The notes under the pieces were generated by a model. The model saw nothing but the letters and a program-made list of their open reading frames with translations, had not been told where the DNA came from and ran no database searches. A stretch of 64,000 bases of DNA, taken from the NCBI GenBank assembly GCA_043798355.1, contig JAZDOT010000047.1:858-64857 (forward strand), read 5' to 3'. Of this stretch, positions 1,164 through 60,173 are shown piece after piece. Each line of letters begins with the position of its first letter. Position 1 is the first letter of the stretch. Source of the stretch: Candidatus Peregrinibacteria bacterium (GTDB taxonomy: Bacteria > Patescibacteriota > Gracilibacteria > Peribacterales > Peribacteraceae). The translations under genes were made by a program, and so were the position numbers.

Positions 1164-2909
1164 ATGCCCGCCACAATGAGCAATCTTGACCGGCAGGAGC
1201 GGGAAGACGTCTGGGAGGAGGGTAGCGAATTCGCAGAGCGGCTTTCGCAGTTGCATCACTACTTCCGGGAATATGTGCACTACACATTCGACGTTCTGGG
1301 TGCGGCTTCAGAAGAGCAAACGAGGGAGCTGCTGGAAGGCTTGCGCTATATCTCTTCCGCATCGCAACTGAAAGAATGGGAGGAATCGATCCCAAAATAC
1401 GAAGAGATGAAACACGCCGCCCACGAGCTCTACCACACAAAGCTCATGGATCGGCTGCTGGAAACCTATAACAGCTCTCCGCGCGCCATGTGCATGGATA
1501 AGATCAAAAAATGGGGTGAGCGTTTCCGCGATAAAGATGTGCACTACAAAGTGAAGGAAAATTTCATTGAAAAAATCCTGCCCACGTACATTGCCCGCTG
1601 GAAGAAAATCGCACAGGAAAGAGAGGAGCTCTTACAAGTGGCACGCAAGAGGCCACTTTCAGGAAAAGCGCTGGATGAACTCAAAGAGTTCTTCGATGAA
1701 GAAGCATTCCTCCATCTGAGCTACCCCGAACGCGTCGGAATCGTCGCCCAGGCACGATCGAAACTTTCCATCACGACAAAGGATGGAGCGATTCAAAATC
1801 TCTACGAAAACGCATTTGCCCTGCTGCAGACAACGGCGAGAAACGGAGACATGAGCAAAGGGAAAGTCGGCGTGTGGATGGAACGGATCTTCTCAAGCAA
1901 AGCCTCACCTAAACAAATCGCGGATTTCCTCGATAAACGTAAATCAATGTCTCTCCCGCGTCTGATCGAACAATGGGCGATCGTACGGAAAAAATTCGAC
2001 ACCATCGAGGACCGCCGGAAGAAGGAAGGCACGCCGCGCGGGTTCAACTTCGTTTCACAGGACAAATTTTTGGACTGGCACTACACTCAGCGCCTCGCAT
2101 ACGTCAGGGAAGCCGAGCAGCGATTTACGGACATCAGCAGAGAAAACCCCCTGCTCCTTGCGATCCGCCACGAACTGGATGCGGAAGATTGGGAAGAGGC
2201 GAAAGCGCTGATCGCGGAAGCGGAAGCAGGTGACCTTTCCGAAAAGGACCGCGGAAAAGTGGCCTCCATGAAGAACTACCTGAAGGAGCACGAGGCGAAG
2301 AAAACGGTGAAGAAGACGGCCGGAGAGAGCCCGCTGGAGGCGCAGCAAGAATTGGGGTATCTCATCGGTCTCCTTCCCGATTCCCTCCAACCGCTCTACT
2401 GGAAAGCGATTGCAGCGAAGAAATTCCGCTGTCTCACCTCCCTCATGTACAACCGCGTGTGGTGCCGCAGGCGCTTCTATCTCGATGACAGAAAAGAGGA
2501 AGAGCAACGCGTGCGTTCCACCGAGGAAACGCGCATGCACGTGGAATACGGACACGGAAAAGGCCTCGAGAACGAAGATATCGACAATTTCCAGAAGCCT
2601 TCCATCCGCTCATACAAGGACCCGAACGTGAACGCACCGCAGGTTCTCTTCACCACGAGCGAGGGACACAACGCGCTCGTTTCCAGAATGATCGAAGAGG
2701 ACAATCACATGTTCCGCTACTGGTCGACTCTCGTTCCCATCGGCGTCGACTACGCGACCCACGCATTCGTCGTGGAACACCTCCACCACCGCATGAAGCG
2801 GTGCCTGCGCATCCTGGAGGGGGCGGGCATCTCACCCGTCCCCGCAGCCGAGATCATTCACAAGGACCAGTTCGATGCGGCCGAAGCTCATCTGGCGATT
2901 GCCGCGTAG
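1164..2909 (+). CDS. hypothetical cytosolic alpha-helical protein (581 aa)
   Basis: Long ORF with protein-like composition, divergent from dcd. No signal peptide and no recognised motif. Confidence 0.7.
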   Translation: MPATMSNLDRQEREDVWEEGSEFAERLSQLHHYFREYVHYTFDVLGAASEEQTRELLEGLRYISSASQLKEWEESIPKYEEMKHAAHELYHTKLMDRLLETYNSSPRAMCMDKIKKWGERFRDKDVHYKVKENFIEKILPTYIARWKKIAQEREELLQVARKRPLSGKALDELKEFFDEEAFLHLSYPERVGIVAQARSKLSITTKDGAIQNLYENAFALLQTTARNGDMSKGKVGVWMERIFSSKASPKQIADFLDKRKSMSLPRLIEQWAIVRKKFDTIEDRRKKEGTPRGFNFVSQDKFLDWHYTQRLAYVREAEQRFTDISRENPLLLAIRHELDAEDWEEAKALIAEAEAGDLSEKDRGKVASMKNYLKEHEAKKTVKKTAGESPLEAQQELGYLIGLLPDSLQPLYWKAIAAKKFRCLTSLMYNRVWCRRRFYLDDRKEEEQRVRSTEETRMHVEYGHGKGLENEDIDNFQKPSIRSYKDPNVNAPQVLFTTSEGHNALVSRMIEEDNHMFRYWSTLVPIGVDYATHAFVVEHLHHRMKRCLRILEGAGISPVPAAEIIHKDQFDAAEAHLAIAA

Positions 2910-2992
2910 CAGAAGTGAAGGAAATACACTTTTTGTCTTGAAATAAGCCAGCGCCGGATGCAAAGTACACTCCCGTTTTTTCTCCTCTTCCT

Positions 2993-3574
2993 ATGAAACT
3001 CCGCGCTCTCTCCTTGATGCTGCCGCTCCTTCTCGCCGGATGCGCGAAGAGCGCTTGGAATCCCCCCGTGCAAACCCTCCTCGCAAATCCCCTCTACGCA
3101 GAACGCTACGCTGCAGACATGGTCAACCGCCTGACGGACATGGAGATTCGTCAGGATCCCCTTCTGCAAGATGCCGGAAAAAAAGGCCTCATTGAACGGA
3201 CGAAAGCTGAGTGGCTCCTCAGAGTGAAATCCGCCCGGGATGCCCAGAAGAAAGGATTCGTCGGGGAATTCGTCACGGGCTCCGAAGAGGTGCTCGGCAG
3301 AGCACTCTCCCTCAATGACACGCTCTACTTCTCGGAGGAATTTCTGACCTATCCCGGACCGGACCTGCGGGTCTTCCTCACGCACGCCCTCGACCCGCGC
3401 GACGCACCCTTCCCTGATGCCACGAGCATCGATTTAGGACCGATCGAATCCCCCTACGGCGCAAAAACGCTCATTGTCCCTCATCAGGAAGATCCCGCAT
3501 ATCTCCGCACAGTCGTCCTCTGGGACGTCCGCCTCCAGCGCCTCTACGGGTTCGCACAGCTCCACAAAGAGTAA
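2993..3574 (+). CDS. hypothetical lipoprotein
   Basis: N-terminus MKLRALSLMLPLLLAGC carries a lipobox (LAGC). Confidence 0.75.
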   Translation: MKLRALSLMLPLLLAGCAKSAWNPPVQTLLANPLYAERYAADMVNRLTDMEIRQDPLLQDAGKKGLIERTKAEWLLRVKSARDAQKKGFVGEFVTGSEEVLGRALSLNDTLYFSEEFLTYPGPDLRVFLTHALDPRDAPFPDATSIDLGPIESPYGAKTLIVPHQEDPAYLRTVVLWDVRLQRLYGFAQLHKE

Positions 3575-3624
3575 GAATGAGCAGGAAACTTTCCCTATCC
3601 TCTTCGACTTCTTCGGTTTCCTCG

Positions 3625-3671
3625 GCTTCCCGCGCCTCGGCAGAGCCGCGAGGCGACGCCGGGTCTGTTTC
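3625..3671. repeat. 47-nt GC-rich hairpin element, copy 1 (perfect inverted copy at 8146..8192)
   Basis: gcttcccgcgcctcggcagagccgcgaggcgacgccgggtctgtttc, with internal stem CGCCTCG/CGAGGCG. It lies between convergent genes. Confidence 0.85.
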
Positions 3672-3672
3672 T

Positions 3673-4266
3673 TCAGAGTTTCTGCTGCATCGTCTTCACC
3701 GCCGCTTCAATAGCCGCACTGAGCGTATCGAACCCCGCTTCCACCTGTTGCCCGTTCACAAAAAATGTGGGAGTGCCTTCCACACCCAGCTTCTGCCCTT
3801 CATCCTCATCGGCCAGAACGAGATCTCTCTTGCTCCGGGACTTCCAGCAGCTCTCGAACGTGGAAACGTCTAATTTCAGGATGCCTGCCCACGAGAGGAG
3901 CGCATCGTAACTCAGGCGACTCTGCTGCTCGAACGAAAGATCCACGAACTCCCAGAATTTCCCCTGATCCGCGGCGCACTCGCTGGCTTCAGCGGCATCC
4001 AGAGCGAAGCGGTGGACAGAGCGAAGTGGGAAATGCTTGAAGTCGAGGCGGATGACGGAACCGTACTTCTGGAGGATGGGGAGCACGACCCCTTTGTGCA
4101 CCACCTGACAGGCCGGACACTGCAGATCCGTGTACTCCACGACACGGATGATCCCGTTGGCATTCCCGCGGGGAGGACGCGCGGACACGAGCGGCTCGCT
4201 CGGCGTGCATGCAGAAAAAACGGTGGAAAGCAGAACGGCGAAGGCGAGGAGAGAGGCGCGTCGCAT
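3673..4266 (-). CDS. DsbA-family thiol:disulfide oxidoreductase (exported or lipoprotein)
   Basis: Trimmed to the ATG at 4266: MRRASLLAFAVLLSTVFSAC signal/lipobox and a CPAC active site in VVEYTDLQCPACQ. Confidence 0.85.
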   Translation of the reverse strand: MRRASLLAFAVLLSTVFSACTPSEPLVSARPPRGNANGIIRVVEYTDLQCPACQVVHKGVVLPILQKYGSVIRLDFKHFPLRSVHRFALDAAEASECAADQGKFWEFVDLSFEQQSRLSYDALLSWAGILKLDVSTFESCWKSRSKRDLVLADEDEGQKLGVEGTPTFFVNGQQVEAGFDTLSAAIEAAVKTMQQKL

Positions 4267-8039: not shown

Positions 8040-8759
8040 CTATCGCCGGGAAGGCGGCTTCTGCGCTCGAAATGGCCACCTGAGCAACCGGAGGAGAGAG
8101 GGCTTGCTTGAAATGGAGGAAGAAAAGGGAAGAGAAGAAGTAGAGGAAACAGACCCGGCGTCGCCTCGCGGCTCTGCCGAGGCGCGGGAAGCAGAAGAAG
8201 CAGAAGACACCGAGAATTCTAACAGGGGGGCAACCGGCTTCAGGAGAACGGCGTCGGCCGTGTAGGTCTCGCGATTGCGTGCGCGGATGGCGACCATGAC
8301 CCGCTGCCCGTAGGTGACCGTCACGGTCCCAAAGCTCTGCCACGGGACGCCGTTCTCCACGGGACCGTTCGGGAGCGCATCCTGTGCAAAGGCGTGGACA
8401 AGGAGCTCATCCTTCGCATCCGCCACTCTCAGTTCTAATCGCGGCGCCTGGTGCTCCACGATTGCAGGCCACGTGACGAACACCTCATAGACACCGGCAG
8501 GAACATCCACGAATGTCCAGCTGGCAGACGCCCACTGATTCCTCCACTGTGTATGGCTGTGGAGGTGATAGCTCCCGCCGTATCCTCCGCCCTCGACAAC
8601 CGTCCAGCGCTGTCCAAGCGTATTGAATCGACCGAGCACATCACGATCATCGATGAGGAGAGACGGCTCCTCCGGTGAAACGAGGGCGAGCAGTTTCGCC
8701 CCTGCGACCGACGATGCAATGAGAACGGAGAGAACGATGACAATGGAGAAACGGCTCAT
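8040..8759 (-). CDS. secreted protein with golvesin C-terminal-like (carbohydrate-binding-like) domain
   Basis: Signal peptide MSRFSIVIVLSVLIASSVAGA. Domain pattern W..GGYGGSY...ASWTF.DVPAGVYEVFVTW...ADAVLL. The C-terminal tail reads through the repeat at 8146..8192. Confidence 0.7.
   Translation of the reverse strand: MSRFSIVIVLSVLIASSVAGAKLLALVSPEEPSLLIDDRDVLGRFNTLGQRWTVVEGGGYGGSYHLHSHTQWRNQWASASWTFVDVPAGVYEVFVTWPAIVEHQAPRLELRVADAKDELLVHAFAQDALPNGPVENGVPWQSFGTVTVTYGQRVMVAIRARNRETYTADAVLLKPVAPLLEFSVSSASSASRASAEPRGDAGSVSSTSSLPFSSSISSKPSLLRLLRWPFRAQKPPSRR
8146..8192. repeat. 47-nt GC-rich hairpin element, copy 2 (reverse complement of 3625..3671)
   Basis: 47/47 identity to copy 1 in inverted orientation, by manual alignment. 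Confidence 0.85.
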
Positions 8760-9421
8760 GCGGAAGAGAAAGAGGATGAAGAAGAGGATAGAGAGGAGGA
8801 ACGACGCATGAGGAGAACAGCATCAGCGCTGTATTTCTCGGTATTCGGCGCGGAGGCGCTGACCGTGAGCATCCCGGAGAGCCGGAGTGAGCCGATCTGC
8901 TGCCACATAACCCCATCATACAGCATCCCATGAGGGGCTGTGTTCTGATCGATGGTTGCGGACACGGCGGGAGAAGACCCCCCCTGAATGCCGTACGAAA
9001 CGTTTCGGGAAGCCCCAACGGTTGGAACCCACGTCACGAAGACGTCGTACGTGCCCTCGGGAAGGGCTCTGAAGCGCCACCGCGCGCTCGTCGCAATGTT
9101 CCTCCCGAACGTGAAGAGATGGAGGAACGATGATCCTCGGTACCCCCCGACGGTGTTATCCCGTCCCGTGAGCCATCCCACGCCCTGCGTCTTGAAGGCG
9201 TCGGGGCCGACAGTGTCGTCGATGATGAAGACAGATGAGAGAAAAGAGAAGGAGGAAACAGAAGAAGCAAAGGAAGAAGAGGCAGAAGAGGAAGAGGATT
9301 GCGATACAAAAATGGCTCCGGGGGTGAAGACGTGTTCCTGTATCCAGACCCGAAACACTTTCGATGTCGAGAGCACGCCGCACACGGTCACGAGAAAGAG
9401 GAAGCCGATTTTCATGCGCAT
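8756..9421 (-). CDS. secreted golvesin C-terminal-like domain protein (tandem paralogue)
   Basis: Trimmed to MRMKIGFLFLVTVCGVLS. Contains ARWRFRALPEGTYDVFVTW...ADAVLL. Its stop overlaps the downstream paralogue's start (ATGA at 8756-8759). Confidence 0.7.
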   Translation of the reverse strand: MRMKIGFLFLVTVCGVLSTSKVFRVWIQEHVFTPGAIFVSQSSSSSASSSFASSVSSFSFLSSVFIIDDTVGPDAFKTQGVGWLTGRDNTVGGYRGSSFLHLFTFGRNIATSARWRFRALPEGTYDVFVTWVPTVGASRNVSYGIQGGSSPAVSATIDQNTAPHGMLYDGVMWQQIGSLRLSGMLTVSASAPNTEKYSADAVLLMRRSSSLSSSSSSFSSA

Positions 9422-9435
9422 GGAGAAAGCGTACA

Positions 9436-9458
9436 GCGAATAGCGAATAGCGAATAGC
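9436..9458. repeat. heptamer tandem repeat (GCGAATA)x3
   Basis: gcgaatagcgaatagcgaatagc lies just upstream of the 8756..9421 start. A solo unit gaatagcg follows the pgi stop at about 23540. Confidence 0.9.
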
Positions 9459-9537
9459 AACAGTAATGACAGGCAAAGCATGAAACTCGCTCCGCGCAAT
9501 TGCATGCCATCCCGTGCGATGTTACAACCACCCTCCT

Positions 9538-10827: not shown

Positions 10828-13518
10828 TCAAGCCTTCTTCTCCTTCCTCTCTTTCAGCTCCAGCATCACCTTACTCGGCGGAGGAATGCCCCCGCTCTTC
10901 TCCAGTTTCTTCTCCAGATCCGCCTTGGATATCACCTCTTCGGGAGTCAGTGCCTCCCCTGCATACTCCTTCTTGCGGATCATATTGTAATCGTTCGTCC
11001 ACATCTCACGATCCCGCCACGCACGATACTCTTCGAGCTTCATTCCCTTCTTGCGGGCTTTCTTCAGTTCCTCTTCCTCTTTTTCCTTGGATTTCTCCGC
11101 GGTCTTCGCCTGCTTCTTCGCCGCTCCGGCACTGGCCGCCCATATGCGGATTTTTTCTTCGACTTCCTCGCGCGACACCGAGTACCGCTCCCGCGAGAGA
11201 TCGCGGATGATCGCCGTACGCTTGGAATCCTCATCGTACTGCGGCGGCGGAAGCATGGAGACGGAGAAAGGCTTCGAGGGGATGCCGTCGATCATGAGCC
11301 GGACGTACGCGTGGTACTTGGGGAGACTCAGAATATCTTTCGGGAGCACCACCTCCTCGAACTGAAGGCTCATCTCCTCGGCATCATCACTCCCGATCTG
11401 GAAGCTGATGAGGGACCCGACGTTCCCGAACACCGCATCCTTGAGCGCCGTACTCTTCTCGCCGATCGTCAGCTGCGCGATGTACTGGTTCGCCATGGTG
11501 AGGTTGAGACGATACTTGCGCGCCTCGGAGAGGATGGTCGCGAAGGACTCGGTCGCGAAGTTCTGAAACTCGTCCACGTAGAGGTAGAAGTCTCTCCGCT
11601 CCTTCTCGGGAATGTCCGCGCGGCTCATGGCCTCGATCTGGAACTTGGTAACCAGCATGGCGCCGAGGAAGGCCGACATATCCTCGCCGATCCGCCCCTT
11701 GCTCAGGTTCACAAGAATGATCTTCCCCGTATCCATGGCAGAGCGGATGTCGAGGCTGCTCCTGATCTGCCCCACGATGTTACGGATGAGCGGCGTGGAG
11801 AGGAGCTGTCCGACTTTGTTCTGGATGGCGGAAATGGCTTCGGTACGGTACTTCTCGGACCACACGGCATACTCATCCTCCCAGAAACTCTTCACCAGCG
11901 GATCCGTGACGTGACTGACGATCTTCGCTCTGTACGCGTCGTCAGCGAAGATGCGCATGATGCCGAGCATGCTCGTCCCTTCGTTCTCGAGGAGCGCGAG
12001 CAGGGTGTTTCTCAGAATGTGCTTCATGCGCTCGCTCCACGTATCGGGCCAGAGCTTCTCGAACACGCCCATGAGACCCGACGCAACAATGGGACGCTGC
12101 GATGGATCGCGGTACTCCAGCATGTTGAAGGAAATGGGAAAATCACGGTCCGCGGGATCGAAGAGAACGACGTCGTTCGATCTATTCTTCGGCACCGCCT
12201 TCAGCGCCGCTTCGAAGAGGTCGCCATGCGGGTCGATCACGGCGATCCCCTTCCCCGCGCGGATATCGCTGTAGATCATGTTTTCGAGCAACGTGGACTT
12301 GCCCATGCCCGTTTTCCCGATGCTATAGATGTGCCGCCGCCGGTCGTCGGGCCGGATGCCGAAGGTCGTGCGCTGTCCGCGGAAGACCGCCTGTCCCAGC
12401 GCCGTCACGTCCTCCTCCGTCGAGAGCGGCAGGTTGATGGGCGGCTCCACCTTCTTGGAGTACACCCAGTCGATGTTCGGCGTCTGGACGAGGAGAGTCG
12501 GGATATGCCAGAGAGTCGCGATCTCTTCTACGGAGAGAATGAACGGCCGCGAGTGGAACCCGTGATCTATCTCCGTGATGCGCCGGATCGGCTCTGTTTT
12601 GAATCCGTTGCAGTGCGGCAGCGTGAACTGCCGGAAGCTGCCCGCCATTTCCTCCAATTTGTCCTCCGCCTGCGCGGCAGTATCACTCGTTGCGATGACC
12701 GTGAGACGGACGTTGCAGACGAAGAGGAGCCGGTTCATTTTGTCGAGCGCGGCGGCGACGTGGTCTTCCCGATCGTGGGATCTGGCACTCTGGCGCTCTT
12801 TTTCTTCATCATCCTCACGGCGCGTCGGGCGCATCTCGGGAGAGAGGAGGGGTGGCAGAGAGAAGTAACGGTTGAACCCCGGCCACGCGCGGAACCCCCC
12901 GAGGAGCGTCGCAATGGGCAAGAACAGGAGACGCCGCCATCCGCGGGCGAGCTGCATGCGCGTGAAGAGCTTGGCGTAGGTGCCCGAGAGCGCGGGGAGT
13001 CCTTTGGTGAGAAGCGGAATGAACCTCAGAGCCCGCTTGCGGTAGCTGTCCCCGATAGGTTTCACGATGATTTCGACCATGGCACGCATGCCCGGACGCG
13101 CGTAGCGCGCGAGGGCGGAGGTGATGCCGGCGATGGAGTCCACATTCGTCCGCGTGAGAAGATCGTCAAACTGGGGATGTCTCTTGATAGGAAAAGGCTC
13201 CGGATTTTCAAGGACGAGGTCGCGAGTCACGAGGATCTCCCCTTCGTGCAACTGGAAAGGGTCTTCTTTGGCCTGCTCGATGTCCACATCCGGGTACTGC
13301 GCGTAGAGCTGGCTCTCCGCGAGGCGCACGCCCCGCTCCGTCCCGCGGATGAAGAAGGCGATCTTCCCGTCGCGTGCCATAGAGATGGAGAGACCGACCT
13401 TGGCGTGTATGCCCGAGAGCGAGTGGAGTGCCGCAACCGCGGGCTCCATGTAGATGGGACCGCGGTCATTATCTTCGTTCTGGGCGGCGCGGACGCGGAG
13501 GAGAATTGTTTCTGGCAT
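10828..13518 (-). CDS. TraD/VirD4/TraG-like (type IV coupling-protein-type) P-loop ATPase with a large N-terminal domain of unknown function
   Basis: 896 aa. Walker A IGKTGMGKST and Walker B-like FYLYVDEFQNF, plus RKYRLNLTMANQY and a Lys/Glu-rich tail. The N-terminal ~330 aa are unassigned. Confidence 0.8.
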   Translation of the reverse strand: MPETILLRVRAAQNEDNDRGPIYMEPAVAALHSLSGIHAKVGLSISMARDGKIAFFIRGTERGVRLAESQLYAQYPDVDIEQAKEDPFQLHEGEILVTRDLVLENPEPFPIKRHPQFDDLLTRTNVDSIAGITSALARYARPGMRAMVEIIVKPIGDSYRKRALRFIPLLTKGLPALSGTYAKLFTRMQLARGWRRLLFLPIATLLGGFRAWPGFNRYFSLPPLLSPEMRPTRREDDEEKERQSARSHDREDHVAAALDKMNRLLFVCNVRLTVIATSDTAAQAEDKLEEMAGSFRQFTLPHCNGFKTEPIRRITEIDHGFHSRPFILSVEEIATLWHIPTLLVQTPNIDWVYSKKVEPPINLPLSTEEDVTALGQAVFRGQRTTFGIRPDDRRRHIYSIGKTGMGKSTLLENMIYSDIRAGKGIAVIDPHGDLFEAALKAVPKNRSNDVVLFDPADRDFPISFNMLEYRDPSQRPIVASGLMGVFEKLWPDTWSERMKHILRNTLLALLENEGTSMLGIMRIFADDAYRAKIVSHVTDPLVKSFWEDEYAVWSEKYRTEAISAIQNKVGQLLSTPLIRNIVGQIRSSLDIRSAMDTGKIILVNLSKGRIGEDMSAFLGAMLVTKFQIEAMSRADIPEKERRDFYLYVDEFQNFATESFATILSEARKYRLNLTMANQYIAQLTIGEKSTALKDAVFGNVGSLISFQIGSDDAEEMSLQFEEVVLPKDILSLPKYHAYVRLMIDGIPSKPFSVSMLPPPQYDEDSKRTAIIRDLSRERYSVSREEVEEKIRIWAASAGAAKKQAKTAEKSKEKEEEELKKARKKGMKLEEYRAWRDREMWTNDYNMIRKKEYAGEALTPEEVISKADLEKKLEKSGGIPPPSKVMLELKERKEKKA

Positions 13519-17563: not shown

Positions 17564-17669
17564 ACATAGTTCGCGCTCGGGTTAAAAGATGTCCGGAAGA
17601 TCATAGCGAATTTTACGGAAGAGAAAAGGGATTTGAAGGGAGATGATTTTGGCCGGAAGAACATTCCTG

Positions 17670-17759
17670 TTTTTAGTTTTTAGTTTTTTGTTCTAGGCCT
17701 ACAAACGAAGCCACACTCAAAACAAAGAACGAAAAACGAAAAACTATCAACGAAAAACG
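17670..17759. repeat. two heptamer tandem-repeat tracts: (TTTTTAG)x3 and (AACGAAA)n
   Basis: tttttagtttttagttttttg at 17670-17690, and aacgaaaaacgaaaaac...aacgaaaaacg at 17728-17759. Confidence 0.85.
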
Positions 17760-17814
17760 TACGGTTTACGTGCCTGCCGTCGTATTCCACCACGCCATCT
17801 GCTATGGTTCCCCC

Positions 17815-18492
17815 ATGCTTTCAATAGTATCAACTCCCATAGGGAACCTCGGCGATATCACGCTGCGGGCAATCGAGACGCTGAAGAAGTGTGAAGGGAT
17901 CATCTGCGAGGACACGCGGGTCACGGGCCAACTCTTGAAGCTCCTCAACATAGAGAAGAAGGAGCTCATCAGTTTCCACGGACACAGCGCGAAGGAGAAG
18001 GCCAATGCGATCCTCCGGAGACTGAAAGAAGGTAAACACTTCGCCCTGGTCTCGGATGCCGGAACGCCGGGCATTTCGGACCCGGGATACGCGGTCGTTT
18101 CGCAGGCGAGAGAGGCAGGTATCGCGCTGGAAGTTGTCCCCGGTCCGTCGGCTTTCCTCGCAGCACTGAGCGCAAGCGGGCTCCCCATCAATCAATTCCT
18201 GTACCTTGGGTTCCTGCCCATCAAGAAAGGCCGAAAGACATTGCTGCAATCATTGAAGAATGAGGAGAGAACGATCGTCTTCTACGAGTCGGTCCATCGC
18301 ATCGAGCGGACGCTCACCGAACTCTCAGATGCCCTGAAAGAACAACCGAACCGCACCGTCGTGATTGCGCGGGAACTCACAAAAATGCATGAGGAAATCA
18401 TTTCGACAAAGGCGTGTGAGCTTCCGGAGTGCTCGAAGAAGATTGTGAAGAAGGGGGAGTTTGTCGTCGTGATAGGACCAATCTTTCTGTGA
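17815..18492 (+). CDS. rsmI: 16S rRNA (cytidine1402-2'-O)-methyltransferase
   Basis: MLSIVSTPIGNLGDITLRAIETLKKCEGIICEDTR...VSDAGTPGISDPG, a tetrapyrrole-methylase fold. Confidence 0.92.
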   Translation: MLSIVSTPIGNLGDITLRAIETLKKCEGIICEDTRVTGQLLKLLNIEKKELISFHGHSAKEKANAILRRLKEGKHFALVSDAGTPGISDPGYAVVSQAREAGIALEVVPGPSAFLAALSASGLPINQFLYLGFLPIKKGRKTLLQSLKNEERTIVFYESVHRIERTLTELSDALKEQPNRTVVIARELTKMHEEIISTKACELPECSKKIVKKGEFVVVIGPIFL

Positions 18493-19785: not shown

Positions 19786-20165
19786 GGTTCAAACAAATAT
19801 CAAAAATGGAAATGTCACTGACTACCGGCAGAGCCGGTAGCATGGGAAAAGCCCCTAGAAGGGGCTGACCACACTCCTGGATCTGAATCATTTCTTCTCT
19901 GCACTGATCCACACGCATCTTCGCCATCATCCATGGTCTTTCGCTCTGCATTTCCCTCTTCCCCAACCCTTCCCCCGGCGGGGGAAGGGAGCTTCAAGAC
20001 ATTCCCCCTCCCCCCCCGGGGGAGGGGGAAGGGGGAGAGGGAAAAACAGAAACACACAAAAAAACCGGAAACGCCGGAACGGGAGAACCTGCGGATGTCT
20101 CACCGGCAGAGCCGGTGGATTACCAATTCCTTTTTAAAATTTTGGTTTTGATCCTTGTTTGAACC
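19786..20165. mobile_element. MITE-like foldback element (about 380 bp) with imperfect terminal inverted repeats
   Basis: Left end GGTTCAAACAAatATCAAAA...ACCGGCAGAGCCGGT. Right end ACCGGCAGAGCCGGT...TTTTGATccTTGTTTGAACC. The centre carries hairpins ccttccccc-ggc-gggggaagg and ccccctcccc...ggggaggggg. There is no ORF. Confidence 0.45.
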
Positions 20166-20224
20166 CTGATCCTTGAATCTTGAACCTTCACCCATCGGTG
20201 TCCGCCGATGGCACGCGCTATCAT

Positions 20225-20293
20225 TTTGCATTTCGCATTTTCAATTTTCAATTATCAATTCCCTTCGCCCTAACCCTAACCCTAACCCTAATC
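20225..20293. repeat. heptamer tract (GCATTTY/CAATTWT units) followed by the hexamer tract (CCCTAA)x4
   Basis: tttgcatttcgcattttcaattttcaattatcaattcc, then ccctaaccctaaccctaaccctaatcc flanked by ccttcgcc on both sides. It abuts the stop of the M23 peptidase gene. Confidence 0.9.
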
Positions 20294-20303
20294 CTTCGCC
20301 CTA

Positions 20304-21530
20304 CTACGGCAGCTCCCCCCGCGGATTCACATTCACTCCTCCTTTCACAACCTCGAAATGGAGATGCGCCCCCGTCGTCGTCGGACCCGCGCCGTGCGTA
20401 CCGGGGGTCCCGCCGCTCAAGCCAATCACTTCCCCTGCACGGATATCCTGTCCGGCGCTCACGGAAATGACGGAGAGGTGACCGTAGAGCGTGGCATAGC
20501 CGCCGCGGTGCCCGACGAGGACGTAGGAGTAGCCGCTTCCCCCGCCGTCGCGCGCGAGGAAGACGACGCCGTCGGCGGCGCTCACGACGGGACTCCCCTG
20601 ACCGATGACGATGTCCATGCCGCAGTGCGGGATGCCGAAGAATTTCTGGTACGCGCTGTCCATGAATCCCGCCGAAATCGGTCCGTATGCAGGCCAGATG
20701 AATGATTGGTCGAACGGCATGATGCCGTCCGCATACTGTCCCGGCCGCGCATCCCTGAGCCCTTTTTCGATGAGGGTGCGCTCGGCCCGAGCGCGCAGCC
20801 GTGCATCGATCCGCGCGAGCTCTCCCTGTAACCGCAAGACCTGCCGGTGCACCTCCTCGAACACCTGCTTGATGCGTGCGGTATCGGGCGTGCCGGTGTA
20901 GGAGCCCCCCTGCACGCGGTCCACCGTCTTGTCCTTGGCCACATACTCCTTCTGGAGCAGAGCGTACTCCCCCGCCGAAGCGCGCAACACGGCATCGTGG
21001 GCGCCGACGGAATTGATGAGCGAGAGAAGCTCGCCATGCGCTCGCAGATTCGTTCTGAGTAACGCATCGGACCCAAGGAAAGCGTTCAGAGGAGACGAGA
21101 GGAGGAAGGACAGGAGATCCGTACCCGAGACATCCTCTCCGACATCCATTGTCTGGACTGCGATACGCCGGAGCAGGTCAACAAGGGTCATCTGCTGTCC
21201 CAAAGCAAGATCGGGGAATGACGGATCCGTCGTGACCACCCCATGCTCCGATTGCAATGCTTCGAGCTCGCTCTTCGCTGAAGCGATCTTCAGACGTACT
21301 TCGCGCTTCTCCTTGGCGATGGCGGCCAGCGCATTCTGCGCCTCCGTGATTTCTTTCGCTTGCACGGTCCGCGGGCGCGACTGGTATGTTTTTGCCGCCC
21401 GATCGATGGCCTGACGGAGCTCCTGCTCGGTCTCGGAGCGCTTTGCAGGAACGCTGAGCGCGAGCGTTGCGAGAGGAAGACAGCCAAGGCCGAGAACCAT
21501 CATGGTGGTCAGGCGTTGCAGGGTATGCAT
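20304..21530 (-). CDS. M23 family metallopeptidase with N-terminal coiled coil (EnvC-like)
   Basis: Signal peptide, a coiled-coil region, and C-terminal HCGMDIV...GGYATLYGHLS...GAHLHFEV. Confidence 0.9.
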   Translation of the reverse strand: MHTLQRLTTMMVLGLGCLPLATLALSVPAKRSETEQELRQAIDRAAKTYQSRPRTVQAKEITEAQNALAAIAKEKREVRLKIASAKSELEALQSEHGVVTTDPSFPDLALGQQMTLVDLLRRIAVQTMDVGEDVSGTDLLSFLLSSPLNAFLGSDALLRTNLRAHGELLSLINSVGAHDAVLRASAGEYALLQKEYVAKDKTVDRVQGGSYTGTPDTARIKQVFEEVHRQVLRLQGELARIDARLRARAERTLIEKGLRDARPGQYADGIMPFDQSFIWPAYGPISAGFMDSAYQKFFGIPHCGMDIVIGQGSPVVSAADGVVFLARDGGGSGYSYVLVGHRGGYATLYGHLSVISVSAGQDIRAGEVIGLSGGTPGTHGAGPTTTGAHLHFEVVKGGVNVNPRGELP

Positions 21531-22229: not shown

Positions 22230-22260
22230 CCCTTAGCCTTAGCCTTAACCTTAACCTTAC
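22230..22260. repeat. hexamer tandem repeat (CCTTAG/CCTTAA)x5 filling the ruvA-pgi spacer
   Basis: ccttagccttagccttaaccttaaccttac ends 1 nt before the pgi ATG. Confidence 0.9.
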
Positions 22261-22261: not shown

Positions 22262-23545
22262 ATGCTCGACCTCAACATCGCCGCGACACTCGCCAAGGCC
22301 ATCACCCCCTCGATGGGAATCCCCGATCAGGAACTCTCGGCCCTGCGCTCGTCCATGCGGCGGTACACGGAGGACTGGCTGAAAGAGCGCCAGCAGGGCA
22401 AGCACCAATGGTCAATGAATCCCTACGACAAGGAGGCGCTCAAAGCGGTGAAGAACGCCGTACAGCGCACCAAGCCCGACAAGCTCAAGACAGTCGTCTG
22501 GGTGGGGATCGGCGGTTCCGCCCTCGCTCCGCAGGTCATCCAGGAGGTGTTCGAATCACCGGAAACGATGGAGTTCATCCTCCTCGACTCCATCGATCCC
22601 GCCGCCCTCGAGCTCGCGCTGAAAGTGATCGACTGGAGGAGCTCCCTCCTCGTCGTCGCCAGCAAATCGGGCTCTACGCTGGAACCCATGAGTACCTTCT
22701 TCCTCTGCTTCGATCGTCTGCAGGGGGCGGTACGGGAGAAGGCAGCCGAACGCACAATCGCGCTCACGGATCCGGACACAGGAGTGCTGCGCAGTTTCTG
22801 TGTGGAGAAGGGCATCCCTATGCTTCCCATTCCGCCGGATGTGGGAGGACGGTACTCCGTCTTCTCCCCCGTCGGGCTCCTGCCGCTCGTGCTCCTCTCC
22901 GCAGACGTCGATGCGTTCGTTCGCGGCGCGAAGGAGATGGATACCCTCTGCCAGTCCACCAGCATCGATACCAATCCTGCAGCGCTCCTGGCCAGCGTGC
23001 AGTTCCTCCTCGACACGAAGCGGGGCTATCTCCTGCGCGTCATCATGCCGTACTCAAGCCGCCTCGCCTCCCTCGCCCGGTGGGACCAGCAGCTCATCGC
23101 AGAGAGCCTCGGCAAGGCGGAGACCCTCAACCCCTTCCCGATGGCAGCCATCGGGACGCAGGATCAGCACTCGCTCCTCCAGCAATGGATGGCAGGACCG
23201 CGCAAATGCTGGCACCTCTTCATCCGTGAGGAGGAGAAACCGCGTCTCTCCGTCCCCGAACGTGTCCCGGATGCGTTGCGCGCAGTCGCAGGCAAGACGT
23301 TCGGCCAGCTCATCGACGCATGCTACGAAGGCACCAGCCGCGCCCTCACCCGCGCCAAGCGCCCGCACGGAACGATCACACTCCCCCGCCTCGACGCCCT
23401 GCATCTGGGCCAGCTCTTCTTCCTGCTCCTCGCCGAAACCGTCTTCCTGGGCAAACTCTACCGCATCGATCCCTATGGCCAGCCGGCCGTCGAAATCGGT
23501 AAGCAGATCACCAAGGACATCCTCACCCACGGTAAGGGGGAATAG
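22262..23545 (+). CDS. pgi: glucose-6-phosphate isomerase
   Basis: VVWVGIGGSALAPQ...VVASKSGSTLEPM...DVGGRYSVFSPVGLLP. Confidence 0.9.
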   Translation: MLDLNIAATLAKAITPSMGIPDQELSALRSSMRRYTEDWLKERQQGKHQWSMNPYDKEALKAVKNAVQRTKPDKLKTVVWVGIGGSALAPQVIQEVFESPETMEFILLDSIDPAALELALKVIDWRSSLLVVASKSGSTLEPMSTFFLCFDRLQGAVREKAAERTIALTDPDTGVLRSFCVEKGIPMLPIPPDVGGRYSVFSPVGLLPLVLLSADVDAFVRGAKEMDTLCQSTSIDTNPAALLASVQFLLDTKRGYLLRVIMPYSSRLASLARWDQQLIAESLGKAETLNPFPMAAIGTQDQHSLLQQWMAGPRKCWHLFIREEEKPRLSVPERVPDALRAVAGKTFGQLIDACYEGTSRALTRAKRPHGTITLPRLDALHLGQLFFLLLAETVFLGKLYRIDPYGQPAVEIGKQITKDILTHGKGE

Positions 23546-23550
23546 CGAAG

Positions 23551-23590
23551 AATTATCAATTATCAATTATTCATTTCTTCTCTTCACCTC
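23551..23590. repeat. dispersed about 40-nt element starting with (AATTATC)x2.5, copy 1 (copy 2 at 49730..49760)
   Basis: aattatcaattatcaattattcatttcttctcttcacctc versus aattatcaattatcaattcttcattctcttcccc. Both copies start within 5 nt of a stop codon. Confidence 0.85.
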
Positions 23591-23625
23591 AAGAAAGTCT
23601 CCTCCCCTTTGCCCTAGTACTCTAG

Positions 23626-23644
23626 TCCCCAATCCCCAATCCCC
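23626..23644. repeat. heptamer tandem repeat (CCCCAAT)x2.7, identical to the cyanobacterial STRR1 unit
   Basis: tccccaatccccaatcccc directly abuts the trxA ATG. Confidence 0.9.
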
Positions 23645-23965
23645 ATGTCCTCCCCCGTCACCGATGCATCCTTCGCAACAGAAGTGCTCCAGTCAAAGAT
23701 CCCCGTCCTCGTGGACTTCTGGGCTCCGTGGTGCGGCCCGTGCAGGGCCATGGGTCCGGTCGTGGACGAGCTCGCCACCGCGTACGAGGGCAGAGTGAAG
23801 GTGATGAAGATGAACGTGGATGAGAATGCTGAAATGCCTCAGCAGTTCAACGTGATGAGCATCCCCATGTTCATCCTCTTCAAGGACGGATCTCCCGTCT
23901 CCTCCTTCGTCGGCGTCCGCTCGCAAGCGGACATCGAAGCGGAGTTCCAGAAAGCACTCTCTTAA
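23645..23965 (+). CDS. trxA: thioredoxin
   Basis: 106 aa with VDFWAPWCGPCR. Confidence 0.96.
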   Translation: MSSPVTDASFATEVLQSKIPVLVDFWAPWCGPCRAMGPVVDELATAYEGRVKVMKMNVDENAEMPQQFNVMSIPMFILFKDGSPVSSFVGVRSQADIEAEFQKALS

Positions 23966-25382: not shown

Positions 25383-26561
25383 TCACGTGACGATCTCCTC
25401 CACCCTCCCCTCCTCCACCGCCCTGCGAATCTCCATACCTATTCTCTCACCCACACTCATCGTCTCGCCATAGAGGTAGCGCGTGTACGGGGTGGCGAAG
25501 GTGCCAGGCGAGCCCGGGATGCGCATGGAGACGTCGAAGATGACGATATCCTCCCTGCCATCCTCCGCAACCACGGCACCCTGCAAGGCGAACGGTCCGA
25601 TGATCCCCTTGCCGGAGGGATCGATCTCGGGAGAGAGATTCTTCGTCGCAGAGACGAAGCGTTCCCCGATCTCGAATGCCTTCTCGAGGAGGGATTCCTT
25701 GACCGTGCAGGCGACGTGACCGGTCTCGATCATTTTCAGATCAATCCCTGCCTTCAGCACTTTCTCCTGCTCACTCCCGAGCATCCGGAGGAACCCATCC
25801 AGATTGGTCTGGCGACGCATGTCCGTGCCGAGAAGTTCTAATTGTCCCGTGAGTGGAGAGGAGAAGAAATTGAAATTCACCGGAGCACCCATGACGAATT
25901 CTTCGATGGTCGCCTTCCTCCAGGCGGAAGAAACCTTCCCCTCCTTCTCCATGCGAGTCCCCTCTTTCTCCCACTGCGCTGCACTATTGACGATGAAGAA
26001 CGCCCGCTCGTACTTCCGTTGTACCTCGCTCGCTTTCACGATGACCGGTCCGTCGATGTCTGCGGGACTCTTAAACATCCTCGGTGCGCGGATGCCGGCG
26101 ACGGAGAGGAGGTCGTACTGCGAGAAATGCTGGTCGCGCTCCTCGATCTTCAGGAGCGATCTGGAACCGAAGATCGGCAGTCTGAGCTCATGTTCCACTT
26201 TCGCGAAGTCGGAGAAGTACACCCAGAAGTAGCGATTATGTATAAATATTGTATTCAATTTTCTAAGCTTCTCCTGAATGTCCTTGTTCAATATATCCTC
26301 GAAATTATCGACAACGATTACTTCATCAATACAGCCAATGCTATCACGAGTCCTTCGTCCTAAGTCCTTCGTCCTAAGTCCTTCGTCCTTCGTCCTAAAA
26401 TATTCCGTGTACGTTCGCTCCCTCCCCTTCCGCGCTATGCACACCGTCCGGAATCCGTGCTTCTTCGCGCCATGCGAGACGTCCAGTGCGCTATGACCGC
26501 CAAGAACGCCGACTGTGAGATTGGCGAGATCGTAGCCCCTGAGGAGATCAGCAATATTCAT
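25383..26561 (-). CDS. purP: PurP-like ATP-grasp protein (archaeal-type FAICAR synthetase family), paralogue 1 with a repeat-encoded insert
   Basis: LGGHSALDVSHGAKKHGFRTVCIARKGRE.TY... aligns along its whole length with paralogue 2 and with my recollection of archaeal PurP (IATLGSHSAL...). Confidence 0.75.
   Translation of the reverse strand: MNIADLLRGYDLANLTVGVLGGHSALDVSHGAKKHGFRTVCIARKGRERTYTEYFRTKDEGLRTKDLGRRTRDSIGCIDEVIVVDNFEDILNKDIQEKLRKLNTIFIHNRYFWVYFSDFAKVEHELRLPIFGSRSLLKIEERDQHFSQYDLLSVAGIRAPRMFKSPADIDGPVIVKASEVQRKYERAFFIVNSAAQWEKEGTRMEKEGKVSSAWRKATIEEFVMGAPVNFNFFSSPLTGQLELLGTDMRRQTNLDGFLRMLGSEQEKVLKAGIDLKMIETGHVACTVKESLLEKAFEIGERFVSATKNLSPEIDPSGKGIIGPFALQGAVVAEDGREDIVIFDVSMRIPGSPGTFATPYTRYLYGETMSVGERIGMEIRRAVEEGRVEEIVT
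26349..26398. repeat. tandem repeat (TCCTTCG+TCCTAAG, 14-nt period) inside the purP paralogue 1 CDS
   Basis: agtccttcgtcctaagtccttcgtcctaagtccttcgtccttcgtcctaa. It encodes RTKDEGLRTKDLGRRTRD, which is absent from paralogue 2. Confidence 0.9.
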
Positions 26562-26612
26562 ACATTGGAGTGTAAACTAAAAAACCAACAACCAAAAACC
26601 AATAACTGCGTG

Positions 26613-27668
26613 CTATCCCAGTACTTCATCCAGCCTCCCCGCAGCAATAGCCTCCTTGATGTCCCGTGCAAGCCTGCGTCCCGTGCTCATCGGCTCCTTG
26701 TAGCGAAGTTGCGTGTACGGCGACCCTTCGATGAAGGGATTGGTGCCGGCGACGATGCGGGCGGAGATCTCGAAGACGAAGATCTGCAGTTTGCGTGTCA
26801 CGATGCATTCGAGACAGAAGGGGCCGAAGAGACCTTTACCGGCACCGAGATTCCGGCTCTCCGAAACAACGCGTTCGCCCATGGCGAAGAACTCGGGGAG
26901 TAATGACTCGCGCACCACGACGGGGATGTTCCCGACGATGGTGTAACTGGTGAAGATGTTTGTGGCCAGTTGGTCCTCGGCGCGGATGCGGCCGATACTG
27001 TCAGCGTTACTCTCGTAGCGCTTGTCGAAGCTCATGATTTCGAGCTCCTTTGTGATCGGCGAGTAGAAGTAGTGCACATAGAGCGGCACGCCGACGATGT
27101 ACTCCTGCAGCACGTAATCACTCAGCTCCGGATACTTGCGGTTCTTCACCTCCCAGAACTGCTCGGCATTCTTCGCGATGAAGTAGCCGAATCCTCCTCC
27201 GGCGCCGTGGAACTTCACGATGGCCGCGCGATCGATGTCCTCGGGTTTCTCGAAGACGCGGGGGAGGAGCAACCCGGACTTCAGCAACCACTGCCGCTCC
27301 AGCGTGCGGTCGCTCTCCCACTTGAGGATCTCCTTGGTGCCGTAGTACATGGCCTGCGTCTTCAGGACGCGCTCGGGGCCGAGGTAGGCCACGAAGGATC
27401 CGTGGGGAATCACGATGGCATTGCGCTTGATCAGTTCCTCCTCGAGCGCTTCATTCCACTCTGCCCAGTCATCGACGAGGAGGATCTCGTCCGCGACACC
27501 GTAACTCTTGTACGGCCGCTCGGAACCCCTCTTGCAGATGACGAGGTTGCGCATCCCCTCGTCGCGCGCCCCCTTGAGGATCTGGAGTGCGCTGTGGCTC
27601 CCGAGCGTTGCGATGCAGTAGTCCTTCGGATTCGCGGATGCCGGCATGATGGGCTTTGGCTTTGCCAT
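26613..27668 (-). CDS. purP: PurP-like ATP-grasp protein (5-formaminoimidazole-4-carboxamide ribotide synthetase family), paralogue 2
   Basis: Trimmed to MAKPKPIMPASANPKDYCIATLGSHSALQILKGARDEGMRNLVICKRGSERPY. The start codon choice is uncertain. Confidence 0.8.
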   Translation of the reverse strand: MAKPKPIMPASANPKDYCIATLGSHSALQILKGARDEGMRNLVICKRGSERPYKSYGVADEILLVDDWAEWNEALEEELIKRNAIVIPHGSFVAYLGPERVLKTQAMYYGTKEILKWESDRTLERQWLLKSGLLLPRVFEKPEDIDRAAIVKFHGAGGGFGYFIAKNAEQFWEVKNRKYPELSDYVLQEYIVGVPLYVHYFYSPITKELEIMSFDKRYESNADSIGRIRAEDQLATNIFTSYTIVGNIPVVVRESLLPEFFAMGERVVSESRNLGAGKGLFGPFCLECIVTRKLQIFVFEISARIVAGTNPFIEGSPYTQLRYKEPMSTGRRLARDIKEAIAAGRLDEVLG

Positions 27669-27764
27669 GGTATTTCGGGCATCATAGCAATCTTCAGGGA
27701 AAAGGCAAGGTCTCATCTGAGCCCCTTTCTGTGTTCCTTGCCACAGCATACTCATTTCCTGCAC

Positions 27765-36714: not shown

Positions 36715-36941
36715 CCTCACCCCTTTCCCCTCTCCACTGCGGTGGCGAGGGGAACTGTAAATGTTTTTGTTTGTTTTTTCCCTCTTCCCCAACCCTCCCC
36801 CTCCTTGCCATCCGGAGCATTGGCGAAGGCTGGCGGGGGAGGGGGCAGGGGGAGAGGGAAACACACACAATACAACTCCCTTCTCCTCCGCAGAGGAGAA
36901 GGGCTGGGGATGAGGTCGGAAGGAGGGGGACAGGGGTGAGG
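36715..36941. mobile_element. nested GC-rich foldback (MITE-like) element
   Basis: The outer arms CCTCACCCCT...AGGGGTGAGG are homologous to the element at 57941..58082. The centre (about 36777..36868) is homologous to the core of the 19786..20165 element. Confidence 0.5.
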
Positions 36942-45717: not shown

Positions 45718-45743
45718 GACGACCACCGCAAATGATTGCTAAA

Positions 45744-45762
45744 GGCTCATGGCTCATGGCTA
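45744..45762. repeat. heptamer tandem repeat (GGCTCAT)x2.7
   Basis: ggctcatggctcatggcta. The preceding stretch 45677..45717 (cagccat gagccct tagctat cagccat cagtctt) also has a 7-nt period. Confidence 0.85.
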
Positions 45763-49160: not shown

Positions 49161-49191
49161 CCCTAATCCTAACCCTATCCCTAACCCTACC
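49161..49191. repeat. telomere-like hexamer repeat (CCCTAA/CCTAAT variants) abutting the rplJ start codon
   Basis: ccctaatcctaaccctatccctaaccctacc, followed directly by ATG. Confidence 0.9.
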
Positions 49192-49729: not shown

Positions 49730-49760
49730 AATTATCAATTATCAATTCTTCATTCTCTTC
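49730..49760. repeat. dispersed element starting with (AATTATC)x2.5, copy 2
   Basis: aattatcaattatcaattcttcattctcttc starts 1 nt after the rplJ stop. Confidence 0.85.
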
Positions 49761-49772
49761 CCCCCCTCCCTC

Positions 49773-54096: not shown

Positions 54097-54150
54097 GTTG
54101 TGAGCTATGAGCTATGAGCTTTGAGCGGGCAACGGACAGCGGACAGCTGG
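54093..54150. repeat. heptamer tracts (RTGAGYT)x5 and (CGGACAG)x2
   Basis: gtgagttgtgagctatgagctatgagctttgagcg starts at the MFS stop codon. It is followed by acggacagcggacagc. Confidence 0.9.
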
Positions 54151-57672: not shown

Positions 57673-57713
57673 TGTGATGCAGAGTGTACGAGCACTTGCG
57701 TAAAAACGGCAAG

Positions 57714-60097: not shown

Positions 60098-60173
60098 CTC
60101 ATGACTCACCCCTCGATGCCACTCGGGGCAAGCAGCGTATAGCTGCGCTCTCGGCTCTTTCGCATGCATCATG

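Follow-up and report, generated by a model that had tools for sequence, protein, structure and literature searches.

Diverse heptanucleotide tandem arrays, concentrated past stop codons, are a lineage-wide trait of Peribacteria

We analyzed a 64,000-nucleotide stretch of DNA from Candidatus Peregrinibacteria bacterium (GCA_043798355.1, contig JAZDOT010000047.1, positions 858-64,857 of the forward strand), referred to below as the window, in which tandem arrays of 2-7 copies of a 7-nt unit, with many different unit sequences, crowd the short spacers and recur at gene boundaries. The arrays are real and well above chance, and they belong to a class of bacterial repeat that is already known; in Peribacteria they constitute a lineage-wide trait and not a family of related elements. 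They are probably heptanucleotide microsatellites that arise by slippage, are filtered by selection and have in part been co-opted as stem-loops at the 3' ends of genes and as unstructured leaders. The window has a G+C content of 57.8%, and its gene content includes RuvA, Pgi, TrxA, GyrA, RelA/SpoT, L10, L7/L12, LexA, PNPase, ValRS and two PurP-type enzymes. The best relatives of its Pgi, at 62-75% identity, were found only in metagenome-assembled genomes (MAGs) labelled Candidatus Peribacteria, Peribacteraceae or Peregrinibacteria, and the relatives of its ValRS point likewise to Candidatus Peribacteria/Peregrinibacteria MAGs. Because of these best relatives, we assign the host to an undescribed member of the Peribacteria, within the candidate phyla radiation (CPR), and not to the cyanobacteria.

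All the tracts named in an original prediction of pervasive, diverse heptamer repeats in this DNA were found in place by a sequence check and by Tandem Repeats Finder (TRF), which returned 19 period-7 rows and four hexamer arrays of the CCCTAA/CCTTAA type in the window (Table 1). For the comparison with chance, perfect tandem arrays of at least 2.5 copies were counted, and 100 dinucleotide-preserving shuffles served as the null. Ten arrays of period 7 were observed where 0.03 were expected, which bears out the predicted pervasiveness. The corresponding values were 5 observed and 0.33 expected for period 6, 2 and 1.35 for period 5, and 9 and 15 for period 4, and no arrays were observed at periods 8-13.

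The lineage comparison set comprised about 2 Mb of fetched loci, as distinct from whole genomes, of which 1.56 Mb were non-redundant Peribacteria DNA (pooled, with duplicates masked). This Peribacteria DNA contained 79 arrays of period 7, compared with 17 each of periods 5 and 8, and the excess of period 7 extends to the fetched loci as well as the window; the 67 arrays of period 6 were mainly coding. The TRF best-period histogram gave 59 entries at 7, 27 at 8 and 22 at 14, with non-triplet peaks at 7, 14 and 21, and the same histogram of block-shuffled sequence showed nothing at 7. Among 80 Pgi loci of different species (528 kb), we found 27 perfect period-7 arrays. At the valS loci, 22 arrays were found in 37 Peribacteria loci (309 kb) versus 6 in 42 loci of other phyla (353 kb), and five of these six sit in one contig, L226. 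This contig of 4.1 kb (CAYHOD010000070.1, labelled uncultured Gammaproteobacteria) carries five different perfect heptamer arrays at 1206-3878, one of them of 5 copies, and its ValRS is only 37% identical to that of the window; L226 is either another lineage with the heptamer trait or a mislabelled bin.

Arrays of the same kind were present in more than 100 independent assemblies of relatives. Their copy number has a median of 2.7 and a maximum of 13.6, and the mean GC of their units is 0.40, which is AT-richer than the genome. The units are highly diverse, with 71 distinct canonical sequences among 89 arrays; the most frequent one across Peribacteria, AATTATC, accounts for five of the 89. The longest array, (CAATCAA)x13.6, starts in the stop codon of a long open reading frame (ORF) on a Peribacteria metagenome contig (L112, 19815-19909).

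Heptanucleotides are the commonest long simple-sequence repeats (LSSRs) in bacteria rich in repeats of 5-11 nt, including the GC-rich Burkholderia and Xanthomonas (Mrazek, Guo and Shah, 2007, as summarized in PMC4679880 and PMC4692102). Judging by these summaries, the view that such a repertoire is unexpected in a GC-rich genome was only partly fair, as heptamers had already been reported in the two GC-rich genera. As described there, LSSRs share with the arrays studied here the perfect or near-perfect tandem structure, the dominance of 7 nt among units of 5-11 nt, the multitude of units, the depletion in coding sequence and an origin ascribed to polymerase slippage. The tandem excess over shuffles, period 7 as the dominant non-triplet period in both the window and the fetched loci, and coding depletion were all found in our material. 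The Peribacteria arrays differ from the LSSRs of these summaries in being short, in lying in a zone of about 30 nt past the stop codon, and in that a third of them occur as paired inverted arrays. No report of such repeats in Peribacteria or other CPR bacteria was found in a limited full-text literature search.

The predicted association of the arrays with gene boundaries was confirmed. Of the 22 arrays with 6- or 7-nt units listed for the window, 12 have an end no more than 10 nt from a stop or start codon or extend into such a codon, and this closeness to gene ends holds even where the spacers span 242-1037 nt; seven of the 10 perfect period-7 arrays are intergenic. In the 1.56 Mb of related genomes, 40% of the intergenic arrays begin no more than 10 nt past the stop codon of a long ORF, compared with 9% of random non-coding positions, and 49% of the arrays lie under a long open frame, compared with 80% of random sites. 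Arrays within 10 nt of a long-ORF ATG amounted to 2% versus 3% for random positions. At 1130 Peribacteria gene ends, the lag-7 recurrence of trinucleotides was about 0.02 inside genes and 0.03 at the stop codon, rose to 0.05-0.065 at +3 to +27 after the stop and dropped by +30, while lags 5, 6, 8 and 9 remained at 0.02-0.03 around the same gene ends. Of the convergent spacers, 16.4% contained a strongly periodic tract, as did 8.6% of the tandem and 6.0% of the divergent ones, corresponding to densities of 0.99, 0.62 and 0.34 tracts per kb. These stop-codon and spacer-type statistics show that the main association of the arrays is with the 3' ends of genes.

A "three-frame stop cassette", in which TGA or TAG units every 7 nt would give stops in all frames, was considered and rejected. 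The array at 54094-54147 has a TGA every 7 nt, five in total. A sense-strand stop triplet occurs in 15 of 25 post-stop arrays versus a background of about 35%, and the same stop recurs at +7/+14 at a rate of 0.030-0.033 versus about 0.013. Since the stop codon joins the arrays less than the downstream triplets do (0.030 versus 0.05-0.065), the recurrent stops were treated as a by-product.

Orthologous sites carry different arrays. Of 105 species, 9-20% had 7-periodic sequence in the pgi-trxA spacer, the unit changing from one species to the next, and two related genomes (L021 and L025) differ after pgi by exactly one unit. For a direct comparison of copy numbers, no near-identical relative of the window was found among genome or metagenome contigs, the best matches having 75-79% amino-acid identity, and exact-protein look-ups of Pgi, TrxA and L7/L12 returned no match. 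Inside genes, the clearest case is valS (54893-57900, minus strand), which lies in two frames, with an N part extending to about 56350 and a C part starting from 56287. The frame changes inside a perfect (AGCTCAC)x3.7 array, located in the zinc-knuckle loop that separates the two Cys pairs, and joining the frames needs one unit more or two fewer. The closest valS orthologue (L161) has an in-frame (AGCTCAA)x4.4 array at the same loop, and a further orthologue (L162) is also periodic there. That these arrays are internally perfect yet differ between genera at one unit position points to continuing homogenization. As all 35 of 35 complete Peribacteria valS orthologues are in frame, the state seen in the window is recent, heterogeneous or an assembly choice; possible explanations for the window gene are variation within the population, a choice made in assembly, or an enzyme that is truly split. 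A recurrently split valS, suggested by many database matches of about 460 aa, was ruled out by the same 35 loci, and these matches are probably contig-end fragments. A second, poor array inside valS, AGTTAAC at 55687, may be due to chance.

In the PurP-like paralogue 25383-26561, the array at 26349-26396 adds 48 nt in frame to a loop. This insert encodes 16 residues (RTKDEGLRTKDLGRRT) and is missing from the adjacent PurP paralogue 26613-27764. The two paralogues are tandem minus-strand genes of the PurP type (formate-dependent FAICAR synthetase), here in a CPR bacterium; enzymes of this type are typical of archaea. Taken together, the diversity of units, their replacement at orthologous sites, the perfect internal identity of arrays, the whole-unit differences, and the coding arrays that keep or break the frame fit local slippage followed by filtering.

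The break of valS inside an array, repairable by one unit more or two fewer, is also what would be expected if the arrays were phase-variable contingency loci or assembly artefacts, an explanation that we regard as hardly credible. Contingency repeats sit in the promoter spacer or 5' coding region of surface or adaptive genes, so that expression is switched by copy number. The neighbours of the arrays are housekeeping genes (pgi, trxA, rplJ/L, relA, valS and purP), and most arrays lie on the 3' side of genes, a position from which a change in copy number could not turn expression on or off; for these two reasons we regard classical phase variation as unlikely. The recurrence of arrays in independent assemblies argues against an assembly artefact, and at 18-48 nt the arrays are far below read length.

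Many arrays are one half of an inverted pair. In the spacer after pgi, aligned for many species, an imperfect heptamer run past the stop codon is followed by its own reverse complement, the unit differing from species to species. A two-unit reverse-complement partner within 150 nt was found for 30 of the 89 arrays versus 2 of 89 in reversed or complemented controls. In the window, the arrays at 17669-17692 and 17719-17759 are 83-85% complementary (-23.1 kcal/mol, z -3.4), and those at 45675-45705 and 45733-45761 up to 91% (-38 and -46 kcal/mol, depending on the strand, z about -6), while an inner hairpin is enclosed by loose pairing of 20159-20188 with 20237-20260. Folding with z below -2 was found for 21% of downstream regions versus 5.6% of gene interiors, and for 39% of periodic downstream regions versus 20% of other downstream regions. 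An RNA-level function of the periodic stem-loops is plausible. A dispersed palindromic or mobile element of the REP/BIME or MITE type was rejected, since the hairpin arms differ at every window site and in every species at pgi. Like Rho-independent terminators and REP/BIME palindromes, the stem-loops lie just past stop codons and are enriched between convergent genes; unlike them, the window stems are without a U-tract, long, imperfect, AT-rich and 7-nt periodic, and they share no common sequence.

Direct selection might account for the arrays, whose periodicity would then be no mutational by-product. According to this explanation, which we consider possible but doubtful, the arrays would be the lineage's own gene punctuation: in a terminator-poor genome, register-tolerant stem-loops with 7-nt periodicity, together with (UUAGGG)n, would serve as factor-independent signals that form, stabilize or protect 3' ends, while (CCCUAA)n and (CCCCAAU)n leaders would be recognized for initiation without a Shine-Dalgarno sequence, and the periodicity itself would be kept by selection instead of being slippage debris. 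The abrupt onset of lag-7 periodicity past stop codons, the gradient from convergent over tandem to divergent spacers and the enrichment of hairpins downstream of genes would all be expected from such punctuation. Consistent with it are also the consensus scan for canonical stem-plus-U-tract terminators, which were unenriched in the window (15 versus 14.1 and 25 versus 18.3), the retention of (CCCTAR)n before pgi in four species and the location of arrays on either side of the highly expressed rplJ/rplL. However, a strongly periodic tract is present at only about 6% of gene ends and therefore cannot be the general terminator, the stability of the stems shows no strand bias, arrays occur inside genes too, where one of them breaks valS, and one hairpin lies between divergent genes.

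A set of C-rich arrays free of G stands directly before start codons. The 20 nt that precede the trxA ATG contain 6-7% G and 41-48% C in 105 distinct pgi-trxA spacers, and a TATACT-like -10 box (TAYAMT) lies 30-35 nt upstream of the ATG. The trxA gene of the window has a weak -10-like TAGTACT where its relatives carry TATACT, and the CCCCAAT tract fills most of the stretch to the ATG. Leaders that are CT-rich and devoid of a Shine-Dalgarno sequence are found at many further genes of the window; the 16S 3' end was sought in the fetched loci for the anti-Shine-Dalgarno sequence, and no rRNA was present in them. The rplJ-rplL spacer has a predicted folding energy of 0 and contains G only in the flanking stop and start codons. 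Three window arrays stop 0-2 nt short of an ATG: (CCCCAAT)n at trxA, (CCCTAA)n at rplJ and (CCTTAR)n at pgi. The C-rich window arrays before start codons are repeated versions of general G-free leaders, and the most fitting interpretation of the CCCCAAT tract is that it belongs to this set of G-free, C-rich sequences running up to a start codon.

Hexamers contribute to these leaders. (CCCTAR)n stands before pgi in four species, at the place of the (CCTTAG/CCTTAA)n array of the window, and CCCTAR is the commonest hexamer array in Peribacteria (17 of 67). The unit CCCTAA/TTAGGG is that of the vertebrate telomere repeat. Three window arrays are of this telomere type, with 4.7-4.8 copies (20268-20295, 49161-49189 and 62652-62680), and a further hexamer array lies at 22231-22259. 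On the mRNA strand, (TTAGGG)n follows directly after two stop codons (genes 20304 and 62678), where (UUAGGG)n could in principle form an RNA quadruplex.

Guanine-rich repeats with a comparable placement are known from other bacteria. The GGGAATC repeats of Xanthomonas and the GGGGA(C/T)T repeats of Nostoc/Anabaena are intergenic and lie nearer to the upstream ORF, with the G-rich strand being the non-coding strand before start codons and the coding strand after stop codons, at distances of 0-50 nt and sometimes overlapping the stop (Rehm et al., 2015, PMC4692102). The Xanthomonas repeats also form inverted pairs, and repeat length and sequence vary between close relatives (PMC4692102). The window arrays at 22231, 23626 and 49161 before start codons and the two (TTAGGG)n arrays after stop codons follow this strand rule, and the window CCCCAAT is the complement, in rotation, of the Nostoc GGGGATT. 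The difference is that Xanthomonas and Nostoc amplify one unit many times, whereas our material shows a single CCCCAAT array, in the window, CCCTAR hexamers as the recurrent C-rich type, and a majority of arrays that are not G-rich.

It is thus conceivable that the C-rich or G-rich subset (CCCTAA, CCCCAAT and their complements) acts through a G-quadruplex or i-motif, as proposed by analogy with these repeats, but we consider this unlikely. What speaks for it, besides the prevalence of (CCCTAR)n among the hexamer arrays, is that strand and distance agree exactly with the rule of Rehm et al. (2015, PMC4692102), with (TTAGGG)4.7 on the mRNA strand after two stop codons and the C-rich strand on the mRNA before three start codons. 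The explanation would cover only five of the approximately 22 window arrays, however, and two of these five (23626 and 62652) have three C or G tracts instead of the four present at 20268 and 49161, four being the minimum for a quadruplex or i-motif. Moreover, this genome uses G-free leaders generally, with and without repeats, so that composition alone may explain the strand rule.

The original prediction had linked the CCCCAAT tract to the STRR1 family of heterocystous cyanobacteria, whose unit we take CCCCAAT to be. The STRR1-3 repeats of these bacteria (Calothrix PCC 7601) are three tandemly repeated heptanucleotides (Mazel et al., 1990, cited in PMC4692102). Both STRR1 and the arrays described here are tandem heptamers in non-coding DNA, but in the present case in another phylum, with no amplified family and with a single tract of 20 nt. 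Tandem CCCCAAT (CCCCAATCCCCAAT) occurs once in the window (23626-23645, 2.9 copies), and a search of the fetched loci, some 2 Mb in total, returned no copy. A cyanobacterial origin, and membership of the STRR1 family, are ruled out by the Peribacteria relatives and this single occurrence of the unit; together with the diversity of units among the arrays, the same observations do not support the proposed link to the STRR families.

A precedent for arrays at start codons is provided by the TAACTGA repeats of marine Beggiatoaceae, some cyanobacteria and Bacteroidetes, which occur in 2-6 copies; many of them stand a few nucleotides upstream of a start codon that has no canonical ribosome-binding site, also in ribosomal protein operons (MacGregor, 2015, PMC4679880). 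In its hosts TAACTGA is dominant and related heptamers are rare (MacGregor, 2015, PMC4679880), whereas the Peribacteria units are diverse and associated mainly with stop codons. No TAACTGA array is present in the window; only TAATTGATAATTGA, with 2 mismatches, was found on the minus strand at 23556-23569. The nearest unit, TAATTGA (reverse complement of AATTATC), is one base from TAACTGA and lies on the strand opposite the flanking genes. AATTATC itself is present as an array at three window sites (23551-23600, 49730-49772 and 20243-20260), with a similar CT-rich tail at two of them (23551 and 49730).

Such precedents raise the question of whether the arrays are bound by a protein that reads their sequence and thereby regulates translation or transcription, either of the S1, Csp or CsrA type, as proposed for the Beggiatoaceae TAACTGA, or a SARP-like DNA binder. 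The position of the C-rich arrays within a few nucleotides of start codons, the presence of AATTATC at three window sites and in other species together with the single substitution that separates TAATTGA from TAACTGA, and the similar placement upstream of starts, including those of ribosomal protein operons, described by MacGregor (2015, PMC4679880) are in line with this idea. It is nevertheless quite improbable as a general account: 89 arrays comprise 71 different units, the same orthologous site carries a different unit in each species, most arrays lie past stop codons with no excess near start codons (2% versus 3%, see above), and the orientation of AATTATC relative to genes is inconstant. 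A sequence-specific protein is thus unlikely for the bulk of the arrays and possible for AATTATC and (CCCTAR)n.

In the reading that we prefer, local slippage followed by selection, an array would originate by slipped-strand duplication of whatever 7 nt lie at the site, and ongoing slippage would keep its copies alike. Selection would then leave arrays in the first 30 nt or so past stop codons, a third of them as one arm of an inverted pair. A stem built of repeats would tolerate 7-nt register shifts, as pairing should survive the gain or loss of one unit in either arm, and the stem-loop would probably be of use as an aid to termination or by blocking 3' exonucleases, of which the window encodes one, PNPase. 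Before start codons, selection would favour G-free, C-rich arrays as short unstructured leaders without a Shine-Dalgarno sequence. Within genes, arrays would be rare and tolerated when their net length is a multiple of three; in this assembly, a one-unit change in such an array would be what puts valS out of frame.

Several observations weigh against this reading. Slippage alone fails to explain the post-stop zone, the gradient between spacer types and the paired inverted arrays, which is why we infer selection at 3' ends. The 7-nt step size is likewise unexplained; a slippage mechanism related to the polymerase footprint has been proposed for the 7-nt unit, an idea that comes from the literature only (Mrazek, 2007, as summarized in PMC4679880 and PMC4692102). 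Among close strain pairs, indels were too few to reveal any clear peak at 7 nt: six measured 7 nt, five measured 6 nt and seven measured 5 nt, and only one of the 7-nt events was a clean tandem change. The window hairpins 17669-17759 and 45676-45761 have no T-run after the stem, and the former sits between divergent genes, a place that calls for no terminator. Whole spacers fold better in the antisense orientation (100 of 122) because of the G-free leader, and this bias is gone once the leader is removed; stem-loop stability is then equal on both strands (36 versus 48, p 0.09). The stem-loops therefore bear no signature of selection on the sense RNA, and this candidate was dropped. Finally, certain units are shared between species: AATTATC was found five times, and four species have (CCCTAR)n before pgi. 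This sharing hints at a sequence-specific function for a subset of the arrays.

These findings add a CPR lineage to the scattered bacteria that accumulate heptamers, which include cyanobacteria, Xanthomonas, Burkholderia and Beggiatoaceae. Hundreds of Peribacteria MAGs with a common gene order and different arrays at the same spacers form a natural comparison set, which could help to answer why the step is seven bases and whether the arrays do anything. The post-stop onset of the arrays, together with the G-free leaders, gives a hint of the signals for transcript ends and for the start of translation in organisms that have not yet been cultured. In addition, arrays can break frames, as in valS, or add 7-residue repeats to proteins, which matters for the annotation of MAGs and for estimates of their completeness.

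Table 1. Tandem arrays of the window with their positions and gene context
Unit and copies	Position	Strand	Context
(AGCGAAT)x3.4, perfect	9435-9458	+	contains the TAG ending ORF 8988-9443, TAG again at +7 and +14; alternatively a leader ~13 nt upstream of an ATG of minus-strand ORF 8756-9505
(GTTTTTA)x3.4	17669-17692		left arm of 7-nt-periodic stem-loop in the gyrA / rsmI-like divergent spacer
(AAAACGA)x5.9	17719-17759		right arm pairing with 17669-17692; ends 10 nt before the GTG of gene 17770-18492
(TTGAACC)x4.3	20159-20188		convergent spacer; periodic arm, partly complementary to the arrays at 20222-20260
(CATTTCG)x2.7 then (ATTTTCA)x3.4	20222-20260		opposite arm to 20159-20188; inner hairpin 20193-20212
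(CCCTAA)x4.7, (TTAGGG)n on minus	20268-20295	-	8 nt past the TAG stop of M23 peptidase gene 20304-21530(-)
(CCTTAG/CCTTAA)x4.8	22231-22259	+	fills the ruvA-pgi spacer, leaving 4 nt after the ruvA stop and 2 nt in front of the pgi ATG
(AATTATC)x2.9	23551-23570	+	5 nt past the stop of pgi (22262-23545)
(TCCCCAA)x2.9	23626-23645	+	G-free leader reaching into the ATG of trxA (23645-23965)
(AGTCCTT/CGTCCTA)x6.9; as 14-nt unit x2.9, perfect	26349-26396	-	inside PurP-like paralogue 25383-26561(-)
(AAAAACC)x3.9, (GGTTTTT)n on minus	26580-26606	-	6 nt past the stop of PurP gene 26613-27764(-); unstructured
(CAGCCAT)x4.4	45675-45705		left stem-loop arm between convergent genes; overlaps the last codons of ATP-grasp gene 44752-45717
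right arm with (GGCTCAT)x2.6 at 45744-45761	45733-45761		(ATGAGCC)n on minus, 5 nt past the relA/spoT stop
(CCCTAA)x4.8	49161-49189	+	G-free leader ending 2 nt before the rplJ (L10) ATG
(AATTATC)x2.6	49730-49747	+	starts 1 nt past the rplJ stop in the 44-nt rplJ-rplL spacer
TGAGTTG TGAGCTA TGAGCTA TGAGCTT TGAGCGG then (AGCGGAC)x3.4	54094-54147	+	first TGA is the stop of MFS gene 52840-54096
(AGCTCAC)x3.7 and adjacent (GATCAGC/GATGAGC)x4.4, coding strand	56297-56352	-	inside valS, at the reading-frame change
CTCATAG CTCATGA CTC	60091-60107	+	TAG is the stop of ion-channel gene 59210-60097; next unit has TGA in another frame
(CCCTAA/CCTAAT)x4.8, (TTAGGG/TTAGGA)n on minus	62652-62680	-	starts in the TAG stop of gene 62678-63220(-)

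Among the arrays listed, CTCATRR at 60091 is weak, with about 2.4-2.7 imperfect copies. The window also contains two copies of a C-rich/G-rich palindromic element (TTTCCCTCTTCCCCAACCCT.CCCCC ... GGGGGAG..GGGAAA) with arms of 25-45 nt, at 19945-20050 and 36777-36861, which looks like a small dispersed repeat of another kind. The minus-strand gene at 10828-13518 encodes a protein of 896 residues with weak matches to conjugative coupling proteins of the TraD/VirD4 type, and a mobile-element or DNA-uptake function in a small CPR genome is possible for it. Upstream of lexA (54215-54820), at 54159-54201, a promoter-like TTGACT-18-TACACT overlaps the palindrome TACACTGGTGTA (54183-54194), which is flanked by the direct repeat GTACGCTCGT at 54168-54177 and 54192-54201; this palindrome with its direct repeat may be the SOS box of the lineage.

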